UHGV virus genome: UHGV-2190786
Length of the DNA stretch: 11,954 nt
Strand: one strand, 5' to 3'
Source: a virus
Shown here: piece by piece, positions 1 through 6,778 of the stretch
How positions within the stretch are numbered: position 1 is the first letter of the stretch
How the letters are laid out: every line of letters starts with the position of its first letter
The notes under the pieces: model-generated
Told to the model about the DNA's origin: nothing
Database searches by the model: none
What the model saw: only the letters and a program-made list of their open reading frames with translations
Program-made: the position numbers and the translations under genes

Positions 1-984
1 CGCTTACGTGGGCGTTATGCGTGGTCAAAAGACGGAACTGATTCATGGTTTATCACTGACCTTGAAGACGAATCGCACCCTGACCGATACAGTGCACAAT
101 ATCGCGCAGAATCGCAGCCGGACGGCATCATCGGTATCGGGACATGGCGAGACTTCATCGTCTGCTTTGGTTCATCGACGATTGAGTATTTTTCCCTGAC
201 TGGTGCAACCACCGTTGGTGCTGCTTTGTATGTCGCCCAGCCATCGCTGATGGTGCAGAAAGGCATTGCCGGAACCTACTGCAAAACGCCGTTTGCTGAC
301 TCGTATGCGTTCATCAGCAATCCGGCAACAGGTGCGCCGTCTGTGTATATCATCGGCTCCGGTCAGGTATCACCAATCGCCAGCGCGAGCATTGAGAAAA
401 TACTACGCTCCTACACTGCTGATGAACTGGCTGATGGTGTGATGGAATCGCTGCGATTTGATGCGCATGAACTGCTGATTATCCATCTTCCGCGCCATGT
501 TCTGGTGTACGACGCATCTTCAAGCGCCAATGGTCCGCAATGGTGTGTGCTGAAAACAGGACTGTATGATGATGTGTACCGCGCTATCGACTTCATTTAC
601 GAAGGCAATCAGATAACGTGCGGCGATAAGCTGGAGTCCGTGACCGGGAAATTGCAGTTCGATATCAGCAGCCAGTACAACAAGCAACAGGAACACCTGC
701 TGTTTACTCCACTGTTCAAAGCGGATAACGCCAGAGTGTTCGACCTTGAGGTTGAATCGTCAACTGGCGTTGCGCAGTACGCCGACCGCCTGTTCCTCTC
801 TGCAACTACTGACGGAATCAATTACGGGAGTGAGCAGATGATTGAGCAGAATGAACCGTTCGTTTACGACAAGCGTGTTTTGTGGAAGCGTGTCGGGCGC
901 ATCAGGAAAAACATTGGCTTCAAATTGCGCGTTATCACGAAGTCACCTGTCACTCTTTCTGGCTGCCAGATAAGGATTGAGTAA
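1..984 (+). CDS. Tail hub / tail accessory factor, gp10-like; 3' portion only, 5' end lies upstream of the window
   Basis: Frame 1 is open from base 1 to the TAA at 982-984 with no stop. The six-frame track only begins at an internal TTG (226). The stop overlaps the ATG of the next gene (TAATG). Identity is assigned from position immediately upstream of the tail needle gene and from a size consistent with a roughly 470-aa gp10; I do not recall the gp10 sequence itself. Confidence 0.6.
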
Positions 985-1832
985 TGGCTGATTCGAATCT
1001 CAATGTGCCGGTAATCATCCAAGCTACGCGGCTCGATACATCAGTCCTTCCACGCAATATCTTCTCGCAGTCGTATCTGCTTTACGTTATTGCACAGGGC
1101 GCTGATGTTGGTAATGTGGCTAACAAGGCCAACGAGGCCGGACAGGGCGCTTATGATGCACAAGTCAGGAACAATGAGCAGGATGTGATTCTGGTCGATC
1201 ACGAAATTCGACTGGCATCGGCTGAAGCGAAGATACAGGACCACGAAACAAGGATCACTAACGCAGAAGCGGCGATAGTCGGCCTTGATTCACGATTAAC
1301 GACAGCAGAAAACGATATTGAGTATCTGACTGATGAAGTTGTCGCCATTCAAAACACGCTTTCAGACCATGAAACGCGCATTGATGCTCTGGAGTATGCA
1401 ACCACGCGCAAGAAGTCAGAGGTTGTTTACTCTGGCGTATCTGTAACCATCCCGACAGCGCCGACCAACCTTGTTAGCCTGCTGAAAACGCTCACGCCGT
1501 CATCCGGATCGTTGGCACCATTCTTCGACACCGTTAACAACAAGATGGTTGTGTTCAACGAGAACAAAACCCTGTTCTTCAAGCTGTCGATCGTCGGGAC
1601 GTGGCCCAGCGGAACCTCCAACAGGTCAATGCAGCTAACCTTTTCCGGCTCTGTTCCTGACACTCTGGTAAGCAGTCGCAACTCGGCGACAACAACCGAT
1701 AACCTCTTGTTAGCTACGTTCTTCAGCGTGGATAAAGACGGCTTTCTTGCCACAAATGGCAGCACGTTAACCATTCAGTCAAATGGTGCGGCGTTTACTG
1801 CCACAACCATCAAAATCATTGCGGAGCAGTGA
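984..1832 (+). CDS. Tail needle (P22 gp26-like) with C-terminal knob domain (Sf6-type), 282 aa
   Basis: The N-terminus [39 protein letters not shown]...[12 protein letters not shown] closely matches my recollection of the P22 gp26 N-terminal hub-binding region. A heptad-like coiled-coil stretch follows (DHETRIT...DHETRID). The C-terminal ~140 aa are Ser/Thr-rich and non-coiled, as in the knobbed 282-aa Sf6-type needle rather than the 233-aa P22 needle. Confidence 0.85.
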
Positions 1833-2311
1833 TGGAAATAAAGCTCATCGATAATCCGGTGAAGCTTGCAGAATTCCTCAACAACCCGGCAAACACGGGA
1901 AATATCGTAGACAGTGGAGACAAATACTACATCAAGCCTGATGCGGTATACCTCGGCATCTACGAAGGACTGATGCTGGTCGGAGTGCATGAAGTGCGTA
2001 ACTTCTGGCATAGCGTTGTTGAATGCCATGCGGTGTACGACCCCGGATTCCGTGGCGAATATGCACTGCAAGGGCATCGATTATTCTGCAAATGGCTTCT
2101 CGAAAACTCACCATTCCTTAACAGCATCACTATGGTTCCTGACACCACGAAATACGGACGGGCAATTATCCGTTTGCTTGGCGCTACCCGTGTTGGTCAC
2201 CTTGATGATGCTTATACCAGCAATGGAAAGCCTGTGGGCATCACGATTTATCAGTTACCGCGCTCAAAATACGAGGAGCTAACGAATGTTAATTTTCCAG
2301 ATTGCCAATAA
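1832..2311 (+). CDS. gp14-like protein (by position in the P22 late operon), about 159 aa
   Basis: The ORF starts at an ATG that overlaps the tail needle stop (TGATG at 1830-1834); the track begins one codon earlier at a GTG (1829). Size and position match P22 gene 14. Product is assigned by synteny only. Confidence 0.65.
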   Translation: MEIKLIDNPVKLAEFLNNPANTGNIVDSGDKYYIKPDAVYLGIYEGLMLVGVHEVRNFWHSVVECHAVYDPGFRGEYALQGHRLFCKWLLENSPFLNSITMVPDTTKYGRAIIRLLGATRVGHLDDAYTSNGKPVGITIYQLPRSKYEELTNVNFPDCQ

Positions 2312-2939
2312 GCACCTCAGCAAAGCTGTTTACTGCAAAGGTGGCAGTGATGGCGGTTCAAAGGCACAGGCACGCGCAACTGAAAAGGGCATCGAATTGC
2401 AGCGTGAAATGTGGCAGACGAACATGCAAAACCTTGCACCGTTCACGCCACTCGCTCAGCAGTACGTATCACAGTTGCAAAATCTTTCCTCTCTTCAGGG
2501 GCAAGGTCAGGCGCTTAACCAGTATTACAACTCCCAGCAGTACAAAGACCTTGCAGGTCAGGCGCGTTACCAGAGTCTGGCAGCAGCAGAGGCAACGGGT
2601 GGATTAGGCTCTACAGCAACAGGAAACCAGTTAGCAGCAATCGCACCTACACTCGGTCAAAACTGGCTGTCAGGTCAGATGAACAACTACAACAATCTGG
2701 CAAATATCGGCCTTGGCGCTCTTACAGGTCAGGCAAACGCCGGGCAGAACTATGCCAACAACGTCAGCCAATTGTATCAACAGCAGGCGGCAGCATCTGC
2801 GGCTAATGCGAATAAACCATCAGGATTTCAGAGCGCCCTGGGTGGAGCGGCAGCAGGTGCAGCTGCAGGTACTGCAATCATGCCTGGTTGGGGTACAGCA
2901 ATTGGTGCTGGCGTCGGTCTTCTTGGTTCACTTTTTTAA
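2286..2939 (+). CDS. Ejection (DNA-injection) protein, gp7-like, 217 aa
   Basis: ATG at 2286 is preceded by GAGGAG about 7 nt upstream and overlaps the end of the previous gene by 26 nt. The protein is Gln/Asn/Gly/Ala-rich low complexity with a hydrophobic glycine-zipper C-terminus (GGAAAGAAAGTAIMPGWGTAIGAGVGLLGSLF). Position and size match P22 gene 7. Confidence 0.75.
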   Translation: MLIFQIANKHLSKAVYCKGGSDGGSKAQARATEKGIELQREMWQTNMQNLAPFTPLAQQYVSQLQNLSSLQGQGQALNQYYNSQQYKDLAGQARYQSLAAAEATGGLGSTATGNQLAAIAPTLGQNWLSGQMNNYNNLANIGLGALTGQANAGQNYANNVSQLYQQQAAASAANANKPSGFQSALGGAAAGAAAGTAIMPGWGTAIGAGVGLLGSLF

Positions 2940-2951
2940 TGGAGGTGTCTC

Positions 2952-4364
2952 TTGGCTACATGGCAACAGGCTGGTAATTCAGGCGCGCTTCTTGCCGGGT
3001 TAGGCGGCATGAACTCCAACGCTCCAAGAGCAAGTGATGCAGACGCCACGCTTGCATACATTCGACAGAATAACGAGATGGAGCGTTCAGGACGTAATAA
3101 CGTTGGCTTGCAGGCTTTGCAGGGCATTTCATCTGTCATGGATATGTATAAGCAGATGGATCAGCAGAAGCGACAGCAAGAGTTTCAGCAGGCTTATGCT
3201 GATGCATATACATCTGGTGACCGCGATGCAATGCGAAAACTGGCATCACAGTATCCTGAGCAGTTTGACGCCGTAAGAAACGGCATGAAATTTGTCGATG
3301 AAGACCAGCGTTCCACTGTCGGTACACTGGCAGCAAGTGCCAGACTCGCAGCTTCATCTCCAGAAGCCATGATGTCATGGTTGCAGAACAACTCATCTGA
3401 GCTTACTCGTGCCGGAGTAGACCCTCTGGATGTGGCGAAAATGTATCAGCAAAATCCACAAGGTTTCACAGAGTTTGTTGATCACCTTGGGATGGCTGCG
3501 CTTGGTCCGATTGATTACTTCAATGTTCAGGACAAGATGGCTGGTCGGGATATTGAGCGTGGCGAGTTGGCAGAGACAATCCGCAGCAATCAGGCTGGAG
3601 AAGTACTTCAGGCGAGAGGGCAAAATCTTTCCTATCAGTCAGCAATGACTGGGCACAACATCGCAGCGCAACGCTTGGCTCTGGATCAGCAAGAGTTCGG
3701 GTTTAAGATGCAGCAAGCGCAGGAAAAGGCTCAGCAGTTGATTAGCGAAGCACCTAAGCTGTCAGTAAACATGGAAAAAGGCATCGAGACGGCTGTAAAC
3801 AATGCTACAGCATCATCAAACTCAGCCAATTCTATGAGTGCGCTTGCTCAACAGTTCAGAGCAGAAAAACCAACGACAGGTTTGTTCGGTAACGCACAGA
3901 ACATGTTCGCAAAACTTACCGGAAGCGATACGACATTGCGTGATTTGCGCATTCGCCAAAATGCCCTTGTTAACAGTCAGGTTCTTAAATTCCTACCTCC
4001 CGGACCAGCAACGGATAAAGACGTTGAGATCGTTCGACAGGGTGCGCCAACTGACATGGATAACCCTGAGACGGTCGCAAGATGGCTTGATGCAATGGCA
4101 AACCTTGAGCGACGAAACGCGCAGTTTAATGAGTTTAAAGCCGAGTGGATGAGCGCGAATGGCAACCCTGGACAATCGCGTAATGGCGGTCAGATATTGG
4201 GGTTGGATGTTAAAAAAGGTGAATCATTGGGGAGTGCCGTTAAGCGGTATATGTCAATGAATACTGACGCAGCGCCAGCACAAGATTCGACACCTTCAGG
4301 TGAACCACGGAATCAGGTTGGATCATATACCTCAAAATCAGGCATTCAATTTACGGTGGAATGA
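2952..4364 (+). CDS. Ejection (DNA-injection) protein, gp20-like, 470 aa
   Basis: A long ORF whose first in-frame start is TTG at 2952, 6 nt after a GGAGG Shine-Dalgarno (2941-2945). The next in-frame ATG is 19 codons downstream. Size (470 aa) and position match P22 gp20 (471 aa). Confidence 0.8.
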
Positions 4365-6208
4365 TGAAAGTAACTGCAAACGGTAAGACATTTACCTTTC
4401 CTGATGGTACGAGCACCGAAGATATTGGCACCGCCATTGATGAGTATTTTGCTGGTCAGGTTGTTCAGCAACAAACAGTTAATCAGGCCAATAATGCACC
4501 AACACGGGAAGAACCATCATTGATGCAACAAGCTGGCGATTGGCTCACTGGTGGTCAAAGTGCAGGGCAAATTGCAGAACAGGCTGGTCGTGGTCTGGTA
4601 AACATACCATTTGACGTATTGCAGGGTGGCGCAAGTCTGATTAATGCAATCAGCCAGGGGCTTGGTGGCCCCAAGGTTTTGGATGATGTTTATCGTCCAG
4701 TAGACAGACCGACAGACCCCTATGCTCAAGCTGGAGAAACAATTGGCGGGTATTTAGTTCCAGGAGTTGGAACGGCAGGAAGCATGGCTATTGGATCACT
4801 GGCAGAGGCCGCAAATCAGAAAGGTGATTTCGCGCAAAATGCAGCCATAAATGCCGGAGTTAACCTTGCCGCTCAGGGTGTTCTTTCCGCAGCAGCAAAG
4901 GGAATAGGGCGTGGAATAACGGCTATAAAAGGCGATATCGCGCCAGAAGTAGCGAAAAAAATTGCCACCTCAGAATCAATGGGGGTGACACCAATGACAT
5001 CTGATGTCATCCCACCGAAAAATGCTTTCACTCGTGGCCTTACTCAGGATGCCGAGGGGGCTTTGCTCGGGACAGGCTCAAAGCGAGCTGAGCAATATGC
5101 AACGCGTAGTAAGCTGGTAAGTAATTATTTTGACCGTTTTGGTGAGTACAACCCTGATGATGTGGTGAAATCTCTGACCACCACGTTAAGGGGGCGGAAG
5201 GATGCTGCTGGCGCTGTTATCAATGACGTCACCAATAAAATGGGTAATGCCGCAGTTGATACCACAAACACTATGAATGCTCTGAATACAGCGATCGCAA
5301 GACAGGAACGGCTTGGGACGTCTGCCAATCAAAGCCTGCTTACATCCTTGCGTAACCTACGTGAAGAATTAGCAAACCCTGCAACTGATTTGGATGTTAC
5401 GTTTGATCTCTTGCGTCAGCACAGAACAGCATTTAGATCTAATGTTCAGGGAGATGCTATGGTCTTCCCCAACCAGGCAAAAGCAGCTACCAATATGGTA
5501 GAGAATGCAATGTCAAAAGACCTTCGTAACGCAGTTGCAAAAAACCTCGGTGCGTCAGACGCAGCAAAATACCTTAAAGCAAATTCCGATTATGCAAACG
5601 TTTATAATAAGGTGCTTAATAAAAACATTGCTAACAAGCTCAACAAGGCAAGCAGTGAAGCCAGTCCTGAACTTATAAATACTGTTGTATTAAGCAGAAA
5701 ACCATCTGACGTGAAACGAATCTGGAGCGCATTGGATGATAAAGGGAAAGATGCTATGCGTGCAGCTTACGTCAGCAAAATAGCGGAAAAGGCCGGTGAC
5801 TCTCCAGCCAAGTTCATCACTGAAGTTAATAAGCTGAAATCTCAGTCAGGTGGTGAAATTTACAACACTATTTTTTCTGGAAAGCACATGAAAGAGCTTG
5901 ATTCTCTTCATGAAGTTCTACAGAAAACAGCAAGGTCAGACACCGCAAATGTAGTAACTCAGACGGGGCAATCGCAAGCCAACAGGATAAGGACGATTGG
6001 CGCAACTGCGACTCTTGGCGTATCAATGGGGCTTGAGGCTGGTTTCGGTGCAATCATGCGCTTGTATGAGTCCAAAGCAGCAAGGAATGCTCTCTTACGT
6101 TTGGCAAACACCAAAGCAGGAACACCTGCCTATGAAAGAGCGCTAAATAATGCTGCAAATGCGATACGCCCTATACTTTCAAGCCAAATTACAGCAGAAC
6201 AGCAATAA
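4361..6208 (+). CDS. Ejection (DNA-injection) protein, gp16-like, about 615 aa
   Basis: Tandem ATGs at 4361 and 4364 overlap the gp20 stop (TGA 4362-4364). The N-terminus [15 protein letters not shown] matches what I recall of P22 gp16, which argues for the second ATG (4364) as the true start. Size matches P22 gp16 (609 aa). Confidence 0.85.
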
Positions 6209-6222
6209 AAGATAAGATATAA

Positions 6223-6708
6223 CTACCTGATATTATTGCTACTGTTGCATGTTACCGTGTTTCCAAATCCTGAATTGCAGTTTGTATATGTGTCAACGCG
6301 TGTTGGGTAAGGTTGAGTTATAACAGGCTGGCGCGCTTTTTGCTCGATCGCTTGCATTGTGTTTACAGCCTGATAATTCAATAAAGCCTGCTGGAATGCT
6401 TGGCTTTGTGCTATTTGTTGGGCTTGTTCTTGGCTTTGTAATTGAACATAAAGATTATGAAGCTCAAGTCTTGCTTGTGCGTCACTTATCTTGCCTTCAT
6501 CGACACCTTGCCCGAGCATCTTTGCAGCAAGGACATACAGCTTAGGTGTTGGTGCTGATGCCATGCGTGAGTCGTTCTTCACACTGGCATCAAGGCAATT
6601 AGCCATATCGCTAAGCTTTTGATAGCGTTGTTCGCAACTTGCTTGATAGTCACTTACTTTTGCGCATCCAACCAGCAGAATCGGGATAATTAACAGTGAT
6701 TTTTTCAT
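6223..6708 (-). CDS. Predicted lipoprotein of unknown function (moron in the sieA slot), about 161 aa
   Basis: The start is taken at the ATG at 6708-6706, which has a strong Shine-Dalgarno (AAGGAGAG) about 8 nt upstream on the minus strand. The N-terminus MKKSLLIIPILLVGC is a type II signal peptide with lipobox LVGC; the +2 residue is Ala. It is followed by a Gln-rich predicted coiled-coil and a Cys-containing C-terminus. The track's longer ORF (to 6744) adds 12 residues with no ribosome-binding site. Confidence 0.7.
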   Translation of the reverse strand: MKKSLLIIPILLVGCAKVSDYQASCEQRYQKLSDMANCLDASVKNDSRMASAPTPKLYVLAAKMLGQGVDEGKISDAQARLELHNLYVQLQSQEQAQQIAQSQAFQQALLNYQAVNTMQAIEQKARQPVITQPYPTRVDTYTNCNSGFGNTVTCNSSNNIR

Positions 6709-6778
6709 ATGGTTAACTCTCCTTAGTTTTTCACAGGATATCATGAAGGCAATGCCATTTTAGCCGGAAACTAGATTT

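Follow-up and report, generated by a model that had tools for sequence, protein, structure and literature searches.

The internal protein gp7 of phage P22 is one of the three ejection proteins (E-proteins) of the virion, which contains about 12 copies of it. Incorporation of gp20 needs gp7. Residues 21–154, representing the N-terminal two-thirds of the protein, suffice for incorporation of gp7 itself into procapsids. The host OpdA protease removes the first 20 amino acids of P22 gp7, giving a mature N-terminus of KGGKG. This leader is dispensable, as its deletion leaves about 60% of the burst. gp7 exits the virion ahead of the DNA, and both K+ release and DNA injection require all three E-proteins (gp7, gp20 and gp16). 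Sf6 gp7 can replace P22 gp7. The protein has been proposed to extend gp10 as a virion-proximal part of the conduit, and the literature treats it as the counterpart of T7 gp14 and DEV gp73, which are assigned to outer-membrane channels (PMC8954989; DEV paper). The phrases counted in a 2026 preprint (‘gp7 dodecamer’ 6, ‘gp7 channel’ 3, ‘gp10 and gp7’ 3, ‘gp7 and gp20’ 11) are, as far as such counts go, consistent with a 12-mer gp7 channel between the tail hub and gp20.

The DNA analysed here (the window) is a stretch of 11,954 nucleotides from the virus genome UHGV-2190786. In profile searches it proved to cover the late operon and the right arm of a P22-like phage or prophage. Its genes follow the canonical P22 order 10-26-14-7-20-16 (Table 1); in the late operon the gene 7 homolog is flanked by the homologs of genes 14 and 20, with gene 16 following. 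The same order is annotated in P22, Sf6, HK620, L and epsilon34. Homologs of gene 20 begin MATWQQ, and the equivalent of the gene 16 homolog is annotated with PF26808 (Phage_P22_gp16) in related contigs. Beyond gp16 are a lipoprotein-like ORF and a Mnt/Arc-type repressor (minus strand), and the right arm further contains a tailspike with a P22 head-binding domain and a gtrCBA-like cluster. A scan for promoters and terminators around the gene 7 homolog gave nothing above chance.

The product of the gene 7 homolog scored 300.1 bits (cut-off 28; E=1.6e-89) with the Pfam family PF25688 (P22_gp7), residues 18–217 being covered, and it also matched phrog_598 ‘DNA ejection’ (E=7e-85). Searches of NCBIfam and PADLOC gave no match for gp7. 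Identity was 66% to P22 gp7, 69% to both Sf6 gp11 and HK620 gp7, and 93% to Kapi1_056 of vB_EcoP_Kapi1. Homology to the P22, Sf6 and HK620 proteins is full-length; all three are of similar size, share a common core, occupy the same slot (between genes 14 and 20) and have a two-segment Gly-zipper C-terminus ending GLLGSLF. In public assemblies, 975 index blocks list exactly this 217-aa protein, and all five genome or metagenome contigs that were read have it in an unchanged gene order. An earlier note on this DNA had proposed a gp7-type ejection protein, and these matches bear that out. Judged by sequence comparison, we conclude that the reading frame at 2286–2939 is a true gene and encodes a clear gp7 ortholog, carried by a phage or prophage of the P22-like (Lederbergvirus) type. 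It is an already known, ordinary member of a curated family from a very well-studied phage, widespread in sequenced enterobacterial prophages. There is nothing new in the gene as such and little discovery value, and the main use of its analysis is correct annotation.

Table 1. Features of the gene 7 homolog and its neighbours in the window
Feature	Coordinates	Strand	Basis or remark
gp10 homolog, C-terminal part	226–984		PF11134
gp26 tail needle with Sf6-type knob	984–1832		profile searches
Gene 14 homolog (DUF2824), upstream of gene 7 homolog	1829–2311	+	PF11039, E=2e-65
Shine-Dalgarno-like GAGGAG	2273–2278	+	7 nt 5' of gene 7 ATG; read from sequence
Gene 7 homolog, 217-aa gp7 DNA-ejection protein	2286–2939 including stop	+	ATG 2286, TAA 2937–2939
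Residues 1–17 (MLIFQIANKHLSKAVYC), putative N-terminal propeptide	2286–2336	+	KGG junction follows; first 26 nt overlap gene 14 end
+1-frame ORF, 101 aa, 15 Arg, TTG start	2302–2607	+	non-coding by-product
Residues 18–60, moderately conserved N-terminal part of mature protein	2337–2465	+	29–47% identity to P22-type proteins
Residues 61–165, conserved Q/N/G/A-rich helical core	2466–2780	+	conservation and AlphaFold2
Residues 92–131 (QARYQSLAAAEATGGLGSTATGNQLAAIAPTLGQNWLSGQ), peak conservation	2559–2678	+	90–92% identity to P22-type, APSE-1 and phiSG1 proteins
Charge-free stretch, 74 residues (103–176)	2592–2813	+	sequence
Mosaic (recombination) boundary versus Kapi1, at tail start	2830–2850	.	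nucleotide identity drop
Residues 183–217, glycine-zipper tail (GGAAAGAAAGTAIMPGWGTAIGAGVGLLGSLF), ends SLF	2832–2936	+	sequence and comparison
Zipper 1, G187xxxG191xxxG195	2844–2870	+	sequence
Pro-Gly-Trp turn, M199–W202 (M-P-G-W)	2880–2891	+	sequence
Zipper 2, G203xxxG207xxxG211..G214	2892–2927	+	sequence
Gene 20 homolog (ejection protein), TTG start	2952–4364	+	PF16928 Inj_translocase, E=1.5e-70; phrog_917
Gene 16 homolog (ejection protein)	4361–6208	+	phrog_770 ‘DNA transfer protein’, E=2.5e-279

The leader of window gp7 is three residues shorter than the 20-aa leader of P22 and belongs to a different sequence class (17–28% identity). A KGG junction follows the leader in window gp7, as it does in other leader types, and P32 of APSE-1 begins directly with MGG. 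By analogy with P22, we infer that the leader of window gp7 is cleaved. Most of the charges of the protein are carried by residues 18–60. Residues 61–165 are the best-conserved part, with 73–88% identity to the P22-type, APSE-1 and phiSG1 proteins, and within them the segment of peak conservation retains 70–80% identity even in Lumpael and an Aeromonas phage. The core is joined to the tail by a variable linker (residues 166–182). In vB_EcoP_Kapi1 the leader and body are 98–100% identical to those of window gp7, and in Escherichia phage Louie (CDS0012; 90% identity overall) they are nearly identical. The tails of the Kapi1 and Louie proteins are of a different variant, seven residues longer (GGAMSGAASGAMIGSVVPGIGTAVGAIGGGIIGGLGSLF), and the change occurs at the mosaic boundary listed in Table 1.

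Reading these features against the P22 literature, we consider it probable that window gp7 is a P22-type ejection protein with an oligomeric core channel and a membrane-proximal zipper tail. The conserved, almost uncharged helical core would oligomerise, probably as a 12-mer, and the channel wall would consist of its helices, which lack charge and are mildly amphipathic (z about 2.6). The core would then be the virion-proximal part of the channel, adjoining the gp10 tail hub and gp20. Two zippers and the Pro-Gly-Trp turn make up the C-terminal hairpin, which would pack tightly and contact or enter the outer membrane. The oligomeric state and the contacts in this model are taken from P22 papers, including the phrase counts of the preprint. 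Several results count against the model: sequence and fold searches matched no solved structure; the tail received no transmembrane call on the Kyte-Doolittle and Hessa-type scales, nor did the different tail variant of the Kapi1 protein in its depositors' DeepTMHMM note; the Gly spacing is within the expectation from composition; and a long C-terminal zipper is missing from some viable distant homologs.

That the tail matters to the phage is suggested by an amber mutant of P22. Its gp7 fragment stops at codon 154 (residue 148 of window gp7) and still enters particles, yet the allele is conditional-lethal. From this lethality we infer that function depends on the C-terminal third of the protein, tail included.

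The plan of the tail, a two-segment GxxxGxxxG hairpin, is kept in P22, Sf6, HK620, L, epsilon34, APSE-1 and phiSG1, with varying sequence and length. Neither G191 nor G195 varied among the 12 sequences aligned, which come from several phage genera. Relative to P22, the window tail is six residues shorter, the polar turn KLIGSSTPW being cut down to IMPGW. Of the final 15 residues, 12 agree with P22 and 11 with Sf6, and the Gly-rich C-terminal tail of the Lederbergvirus subgroup, ending GLLGSLF, is present. Tail variants (those of the window, of Kapi1 and Louie, of P22, and a fourth type) differ by indels and substitutions, and the plan is common to all of them. When window gp7 was taken as a single sequence and compared with composition-matched expectation, the tail contained four GxxxG pairs versus 2.3 expected (P=0.16) and two GxxxGxxxG motifs versus 0.5 expected (P=0.10). 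As the Gly spacing in one sequence is thus within chance, the support for the zipper motif is its conservation. The C-terminal zipper proposed in the earlier note is retained in the homologs that work in P22 hybrids (P22, Sf6, HK620 and L), and from the comparison we conclude that it is genuine and under constraint. Distant viable homologs from Lumpael, Aeromonas and Vibrio phages are without a long C-terminal zipper.

The second half of the same proposal, that the zipper forms a hydrophobic tail, fared less well. The best 19-aa Kyte-Doolittle window in the tail reached 1.25, below the usual threshold of 1.6, so the hydrophobicity of the tail is weak. On the Hessa-type scale the tail summed to +5.3 kcal/mol, and on the Wimley-White octanol scale to only −1.05. 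Classical hydropathy (Kyte-Doolittle and Hessa-type) therefore gave no transmembrane call for the tail. However, these scales are not decisive. Published work places T7 gp14 (internal virion protein B) in the outer-membrane channel, and yet its N-terminus also fails on the Hessa-type scale (+6.1) and is marginal on the Wimley-White scale (−0.13).

The T7 protein and DEV gp73 resemble window gp7 in being small helical ejection proteins whose genes lie just 5' of those for the periplasmic tube and the large inner-membrane protein. T7 gp14, like window gp7, is encoded by the small first gene of a three-gene ejection cassette (7-20-16 in the window) and has a Gly/Ala-rich, weakly hydrophobic terminal segment, which is N-terminal in T7 gp14 and C-terminal in window gp7. 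The likeness does not extend to detectable homology: hhalign gave a probability of 0.8% for T7 gp14 and gp7, there was no significant fold match between them, and entries named ‘internal virion protein’ in BFVD appeared only at E above 2.

The tail also resembles the Pfam glycine-zipper families PF13441 (Gly-zipper_YMGG), PF13436 (Gly-zipper_OmpA), PF13488 (Gly-zipper_Omp) and PF05433 (‘Glycine zipper 2TM’), which likewise consist of a two-segment, GxxxG-rich hairpin of about 35 residues with Ala, Ile and Leu. The (G/A/S)xxxGxxxG motif is present in both tail segments (G187xxxG191xxxG195 and G203xxxG207xxxG211). When the tail was scanned alone, all four families scored below their cut-offs (PF13441, 22.6 bits versus 28.9; PF13436, 19.9 versus 27; PF13488, 17.5 versus 25; PF05433, 11.3 versus 24.2), with consistent alignments that spanned both tail segments. 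Members of these families are mostly bacterial outer-membrane lipoproteins, whereas gp7 is a phage protein, and the similarity may reflect shared composition alone. Contact of the tail with a membrane, or its insertion into one, is thus no more than plausible.

A serious rival to the membrane reading, although one that we consider rather unlikely, is that the tail serves protein–protein packing, either between helices within the gp7 12-mer or in docking to gp20 or gp10. GxxxG motifs generally favour helix–helix packing. The weak hydrophobicity of the tail fits this role, as does the DeepTMHMM note of the Kapi1 depositors, which records no transmembrane segment in a protein that is 93% identical overall and carries a different tail variant. 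Low gp7 diversity led Casjens and colleagues to propose that gp7 binds the conserved gp10, which would also suit a packing role. On the other hand, P22 gp7 is reported to partition into lipid nanodiscs (Iglesias et al. 2023, as cited in the DEV paper), and the tail is more variable than the core (43–62% versus 73–88% identity to window gp7), a better fit to a lipid-facing segment.

The position of the mosaic boundary, exactly at the start of the tail, bears on the same question. Nucleotide identity to Kapi1 falls from about 97% on the 5' side of the joint to 55–65% on the 3' side, and the megablast match to Kapi1 stops at window position 2845. In all five contigs with exactly the window gp7, residues 1–80 of gp20 are identical and residues 81–220 are at least 91% identical. 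Beyond this part gp20 diverges widely in four of the five, and so do the gp16 variants. The joint and the shared part of gp20 would suit the packing role. However, physical adjacency alone could produce this linkage, and co-evolution with the gp7 tail and mere adjacency may explain the shared part of gp20 equally well. Moreover, P22-type tails co-occur with gp20 proteins that are only 21–50% identical among themselves.

Window gp7 consists of 18% A, 13.4% G, 12.4% Q and 8.8% N. Together Q, N, G and A make up 53% of the protein compared with 22–37% in six neighbouring proteins, and K, R, D and E make up 7% compared with 15–21%. Of the 16 charged residues, 11 are within residues 1–41. The charge-free stretch is mildly amphipathic, with a mean helical hydrophobic moment of z=2.6 versus shuffles (residues 110–176). 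The earlier note had described a composition dominated by these four residues, which is correct, and the peptides that it quoted are present in the protein. What it called repeats is instead compositional bias, as Tandem Repeats Finder detected no tandem repeats and a direct-match scan found only four short two-copy matches. A prion-like Q/N domain was considered and rejected; Q and N amount to 21%, and conservation and a helical prediction both speak against it in this region.

An AlphaFold2 monomer model of window gp7 was built with a 60-sequence alignment. Its mean pLDDT was 65, and it contained helices at residues 24–68, 70–81, 84–104 and 110–175. Confidence was highest over approximately residues 70–130 (pLDDT 85–93), lower for helix 24–68 (63–70), and below 50 in the leader, in residues 144–154 and in the tail (residues 178–217) of this monomer model. 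A search of PDB sequences with phmmer and a 60-sequence profile gave no real match, the FepB hit (E=0.14) being judged spurious, and Foldseek with the model against the PDB found nothing below E=6. The BFVD fold search yielded a single match past E=0.001, a 208-residue viral protein that is 32% identical to the query and is probably a member of the gp7 family.

The earlier note had interpreted the Q/N-rich body as an intrinsically unfolded, low-complexity region that is kept unfolded in the capsid. The strong compositional bias and the low pLDDT of residues 144–154 and 178–217 would suit such a chain, as would the need of the E-proteins to traverse the narrow portal and tail channel. Virion reconstructions show the E-proteins without ordered density, but this means that their position in the virion varies and not necessarily that the chain is unfolded. 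Moreover, the body is free of repeats, conservation peaks in residues 61–165, where many positions do not change between genera, and the most confident AlphaFold2 helices fall within it. We consider an unfolded body quite improbable; the conserved body of window gp7 is predicted from the model to be folded and helical. The case is a reminder that compositional bias differs from disorder.

The earlier note was right to take the +1-frame ORF within gene 7 as a by-product, and a real overlapping gene is extremely improbable there: the ORF has 101 codons with a TTG start and is intact in Kapi1 too, which carries little weight because Kapi1 DNA is about 97% identical in this region, whereas 24% of synonymous-codon shuffles gave an open stretch no shorter than its 104 codons and the frame is broken by stops in P22, Sf6, HK620, L, epsilon34, APSE-1 and others.

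The placement of the Gly-rich segment was also compared across the gp7 superfamily, using 60 full-length representatives of 50%-identity clusters. A hydrophobic Gly/Ala-rich N-terminus was present in 35 of them, only two of which also had a hydrophobic C-tail, compared with 10 of the 25 representatives without a hydrophobic N-terminus (Fisher P=0.002; Spearman rho=−0.34; both statistics ignore phylogeny). The Gly-rich hydrophobic segment thus tends to be at one terminus or the other, the P22 lineage being of the C-terminal type. A tentative and somewhat doubtful explanation is that the anchor can be at either end, and that the Lederbergvirus/APSE/phiSG1 lineage swapped an N-terminal anchor for a cleavable hydrophilic leader and a longer C-terminal two-segment zipper. 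If so, one channel core would be anchored in the membrane by its N-terminal end in some phage lineages and by its C-terminal end in others, with the chain running in opposite directions, and the tail would be an exchangeable module, with the recombination joint in this window exactly at its start. Anchor placement and the 74-residue charge-free helix could guide mutagenesis alongside the in situ structure of the P22 channel. In most of the distant members of the gp7 superfamily the anchor is N-terminal, as it is in the non-homologous T7 gp14.

Comparison with Escherichia phage Kapi1, whose gp7 DNA-ejection protein is 93% identical overall and carries a different tail variant, revealed a sharp mosaic boundary at approximately 2830–2850 of the window, which is exactly where the glycine-zipper tail of gp7 starts. 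Upstream of this boundary the needle knob, gp14 and the gp7 body are about 97% identical to Kapi1 at the nucleotide level; downstream, identity across the tail and gp20 is 55–65%. All five contigs examined that carry the exact window gp7 (L015–L019; gp20 at 3667 onward) follow this identical gp7 with a gp20 in which residues 1–80 are identical and residues 81–220 are at least 91% identical. The C-terminal part of gp20 is only 26–31% identical in four of the five, and their gp16 variants differ, ranging from 609 to 722 aa. The constant pairing of gp7 with the gp20 N-terminal part could mean that the gp7 tail and the gp20 N-domain have adapted to each other, or it could be due to linkage alone.

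Residues 103–176 of gp7 (window 2592–2813) comprise 74 consecutive residues without a charged side chain, and this stretch falls inside a long predicted helix. Such a charge-free stretch is unusual for a soluble helical protein. Across the gp7 family, the Gly/Ala-rich hydrophobic segment tends to occupy one terminus or the other, N or C (representatives P0241–P0390). The N-terminal type was found in 35 of 60 full-length representatives of 50%-identity clusters, and segments at both ends in only 2 (Fisher P=0.002, phylogeny uncorrected). Lumpael-type proteins have the N-terminus MGGAISGIGGAVSGVIGGIG and merely a short GMFGGMMGG at the C-terminus.

Gene 7 begins inside gene 14, with 26 nt shared (window 2286–2311). 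The same overlap is present in Kapi1, Louie and APSE-1, whereas 2 nt separate the two genes in P22, Sf6 and HK620. The overlap accompanies a different class of gp7 leader and 9 additional residues in gp14. The TTG at 2952, preceded by a GGAGG site, appears to be the start codon of the gene 20 homolog; gp20 homologs of Kapi1, Louie and P22 begin with MATWQQ.

Two database homologs of gp7 were aberrant or misnamed. P0044, a 239-aa protein from one Logan contig, is gp7 shifted to the +1 frame across the tail, the frameshifted part giving the same peptide as the window +1 ORF 2713–3003. An assembly error or a pseudogene is the probable explanation. P0066 bears the JGI name 'ABC-type Fe2+-enterobactin transport system substrate-binding protein'. 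FepB (PDB 2m6k and 3tlk) matched the gp7 profile weakly (E=0.14) over ATGG...LxxIAPTL. This similarity is probably spurious, and it may lie behind the misnaming.

Minus-strand features beyond gene 16
Feature	Window	Strand	Remark
Lipoprotein-like ORF	6223–6744	−	LVGC lipobox; phrog_6067 match
gtrC-like ORF	9032–10912	−	mechanical ORF listing
gtrB-like gene	10663–11595	−	overlapped by gtrC-like ORF

The lipobox of the lipoprotein-like ORF lies within MKKSLLIIPILLVGC of the product read from M13, the likely start. Its sole match was phrog_6067 (unknown function); Pfam and PADLOC gave no matches, and an NCBIfam match fell far below threshold. The ORF is flanked by gene 16 and a Mnt/Arc-type repressor. 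P22 carries sieA at this position, and the ORF could therefore be a moron or a gene for superinfection exclusion. As listed, the gtrC-like ORF and the gtrB-like gene share about 250 nt. Its true start is probably an internal site, which would abolish the overlap.
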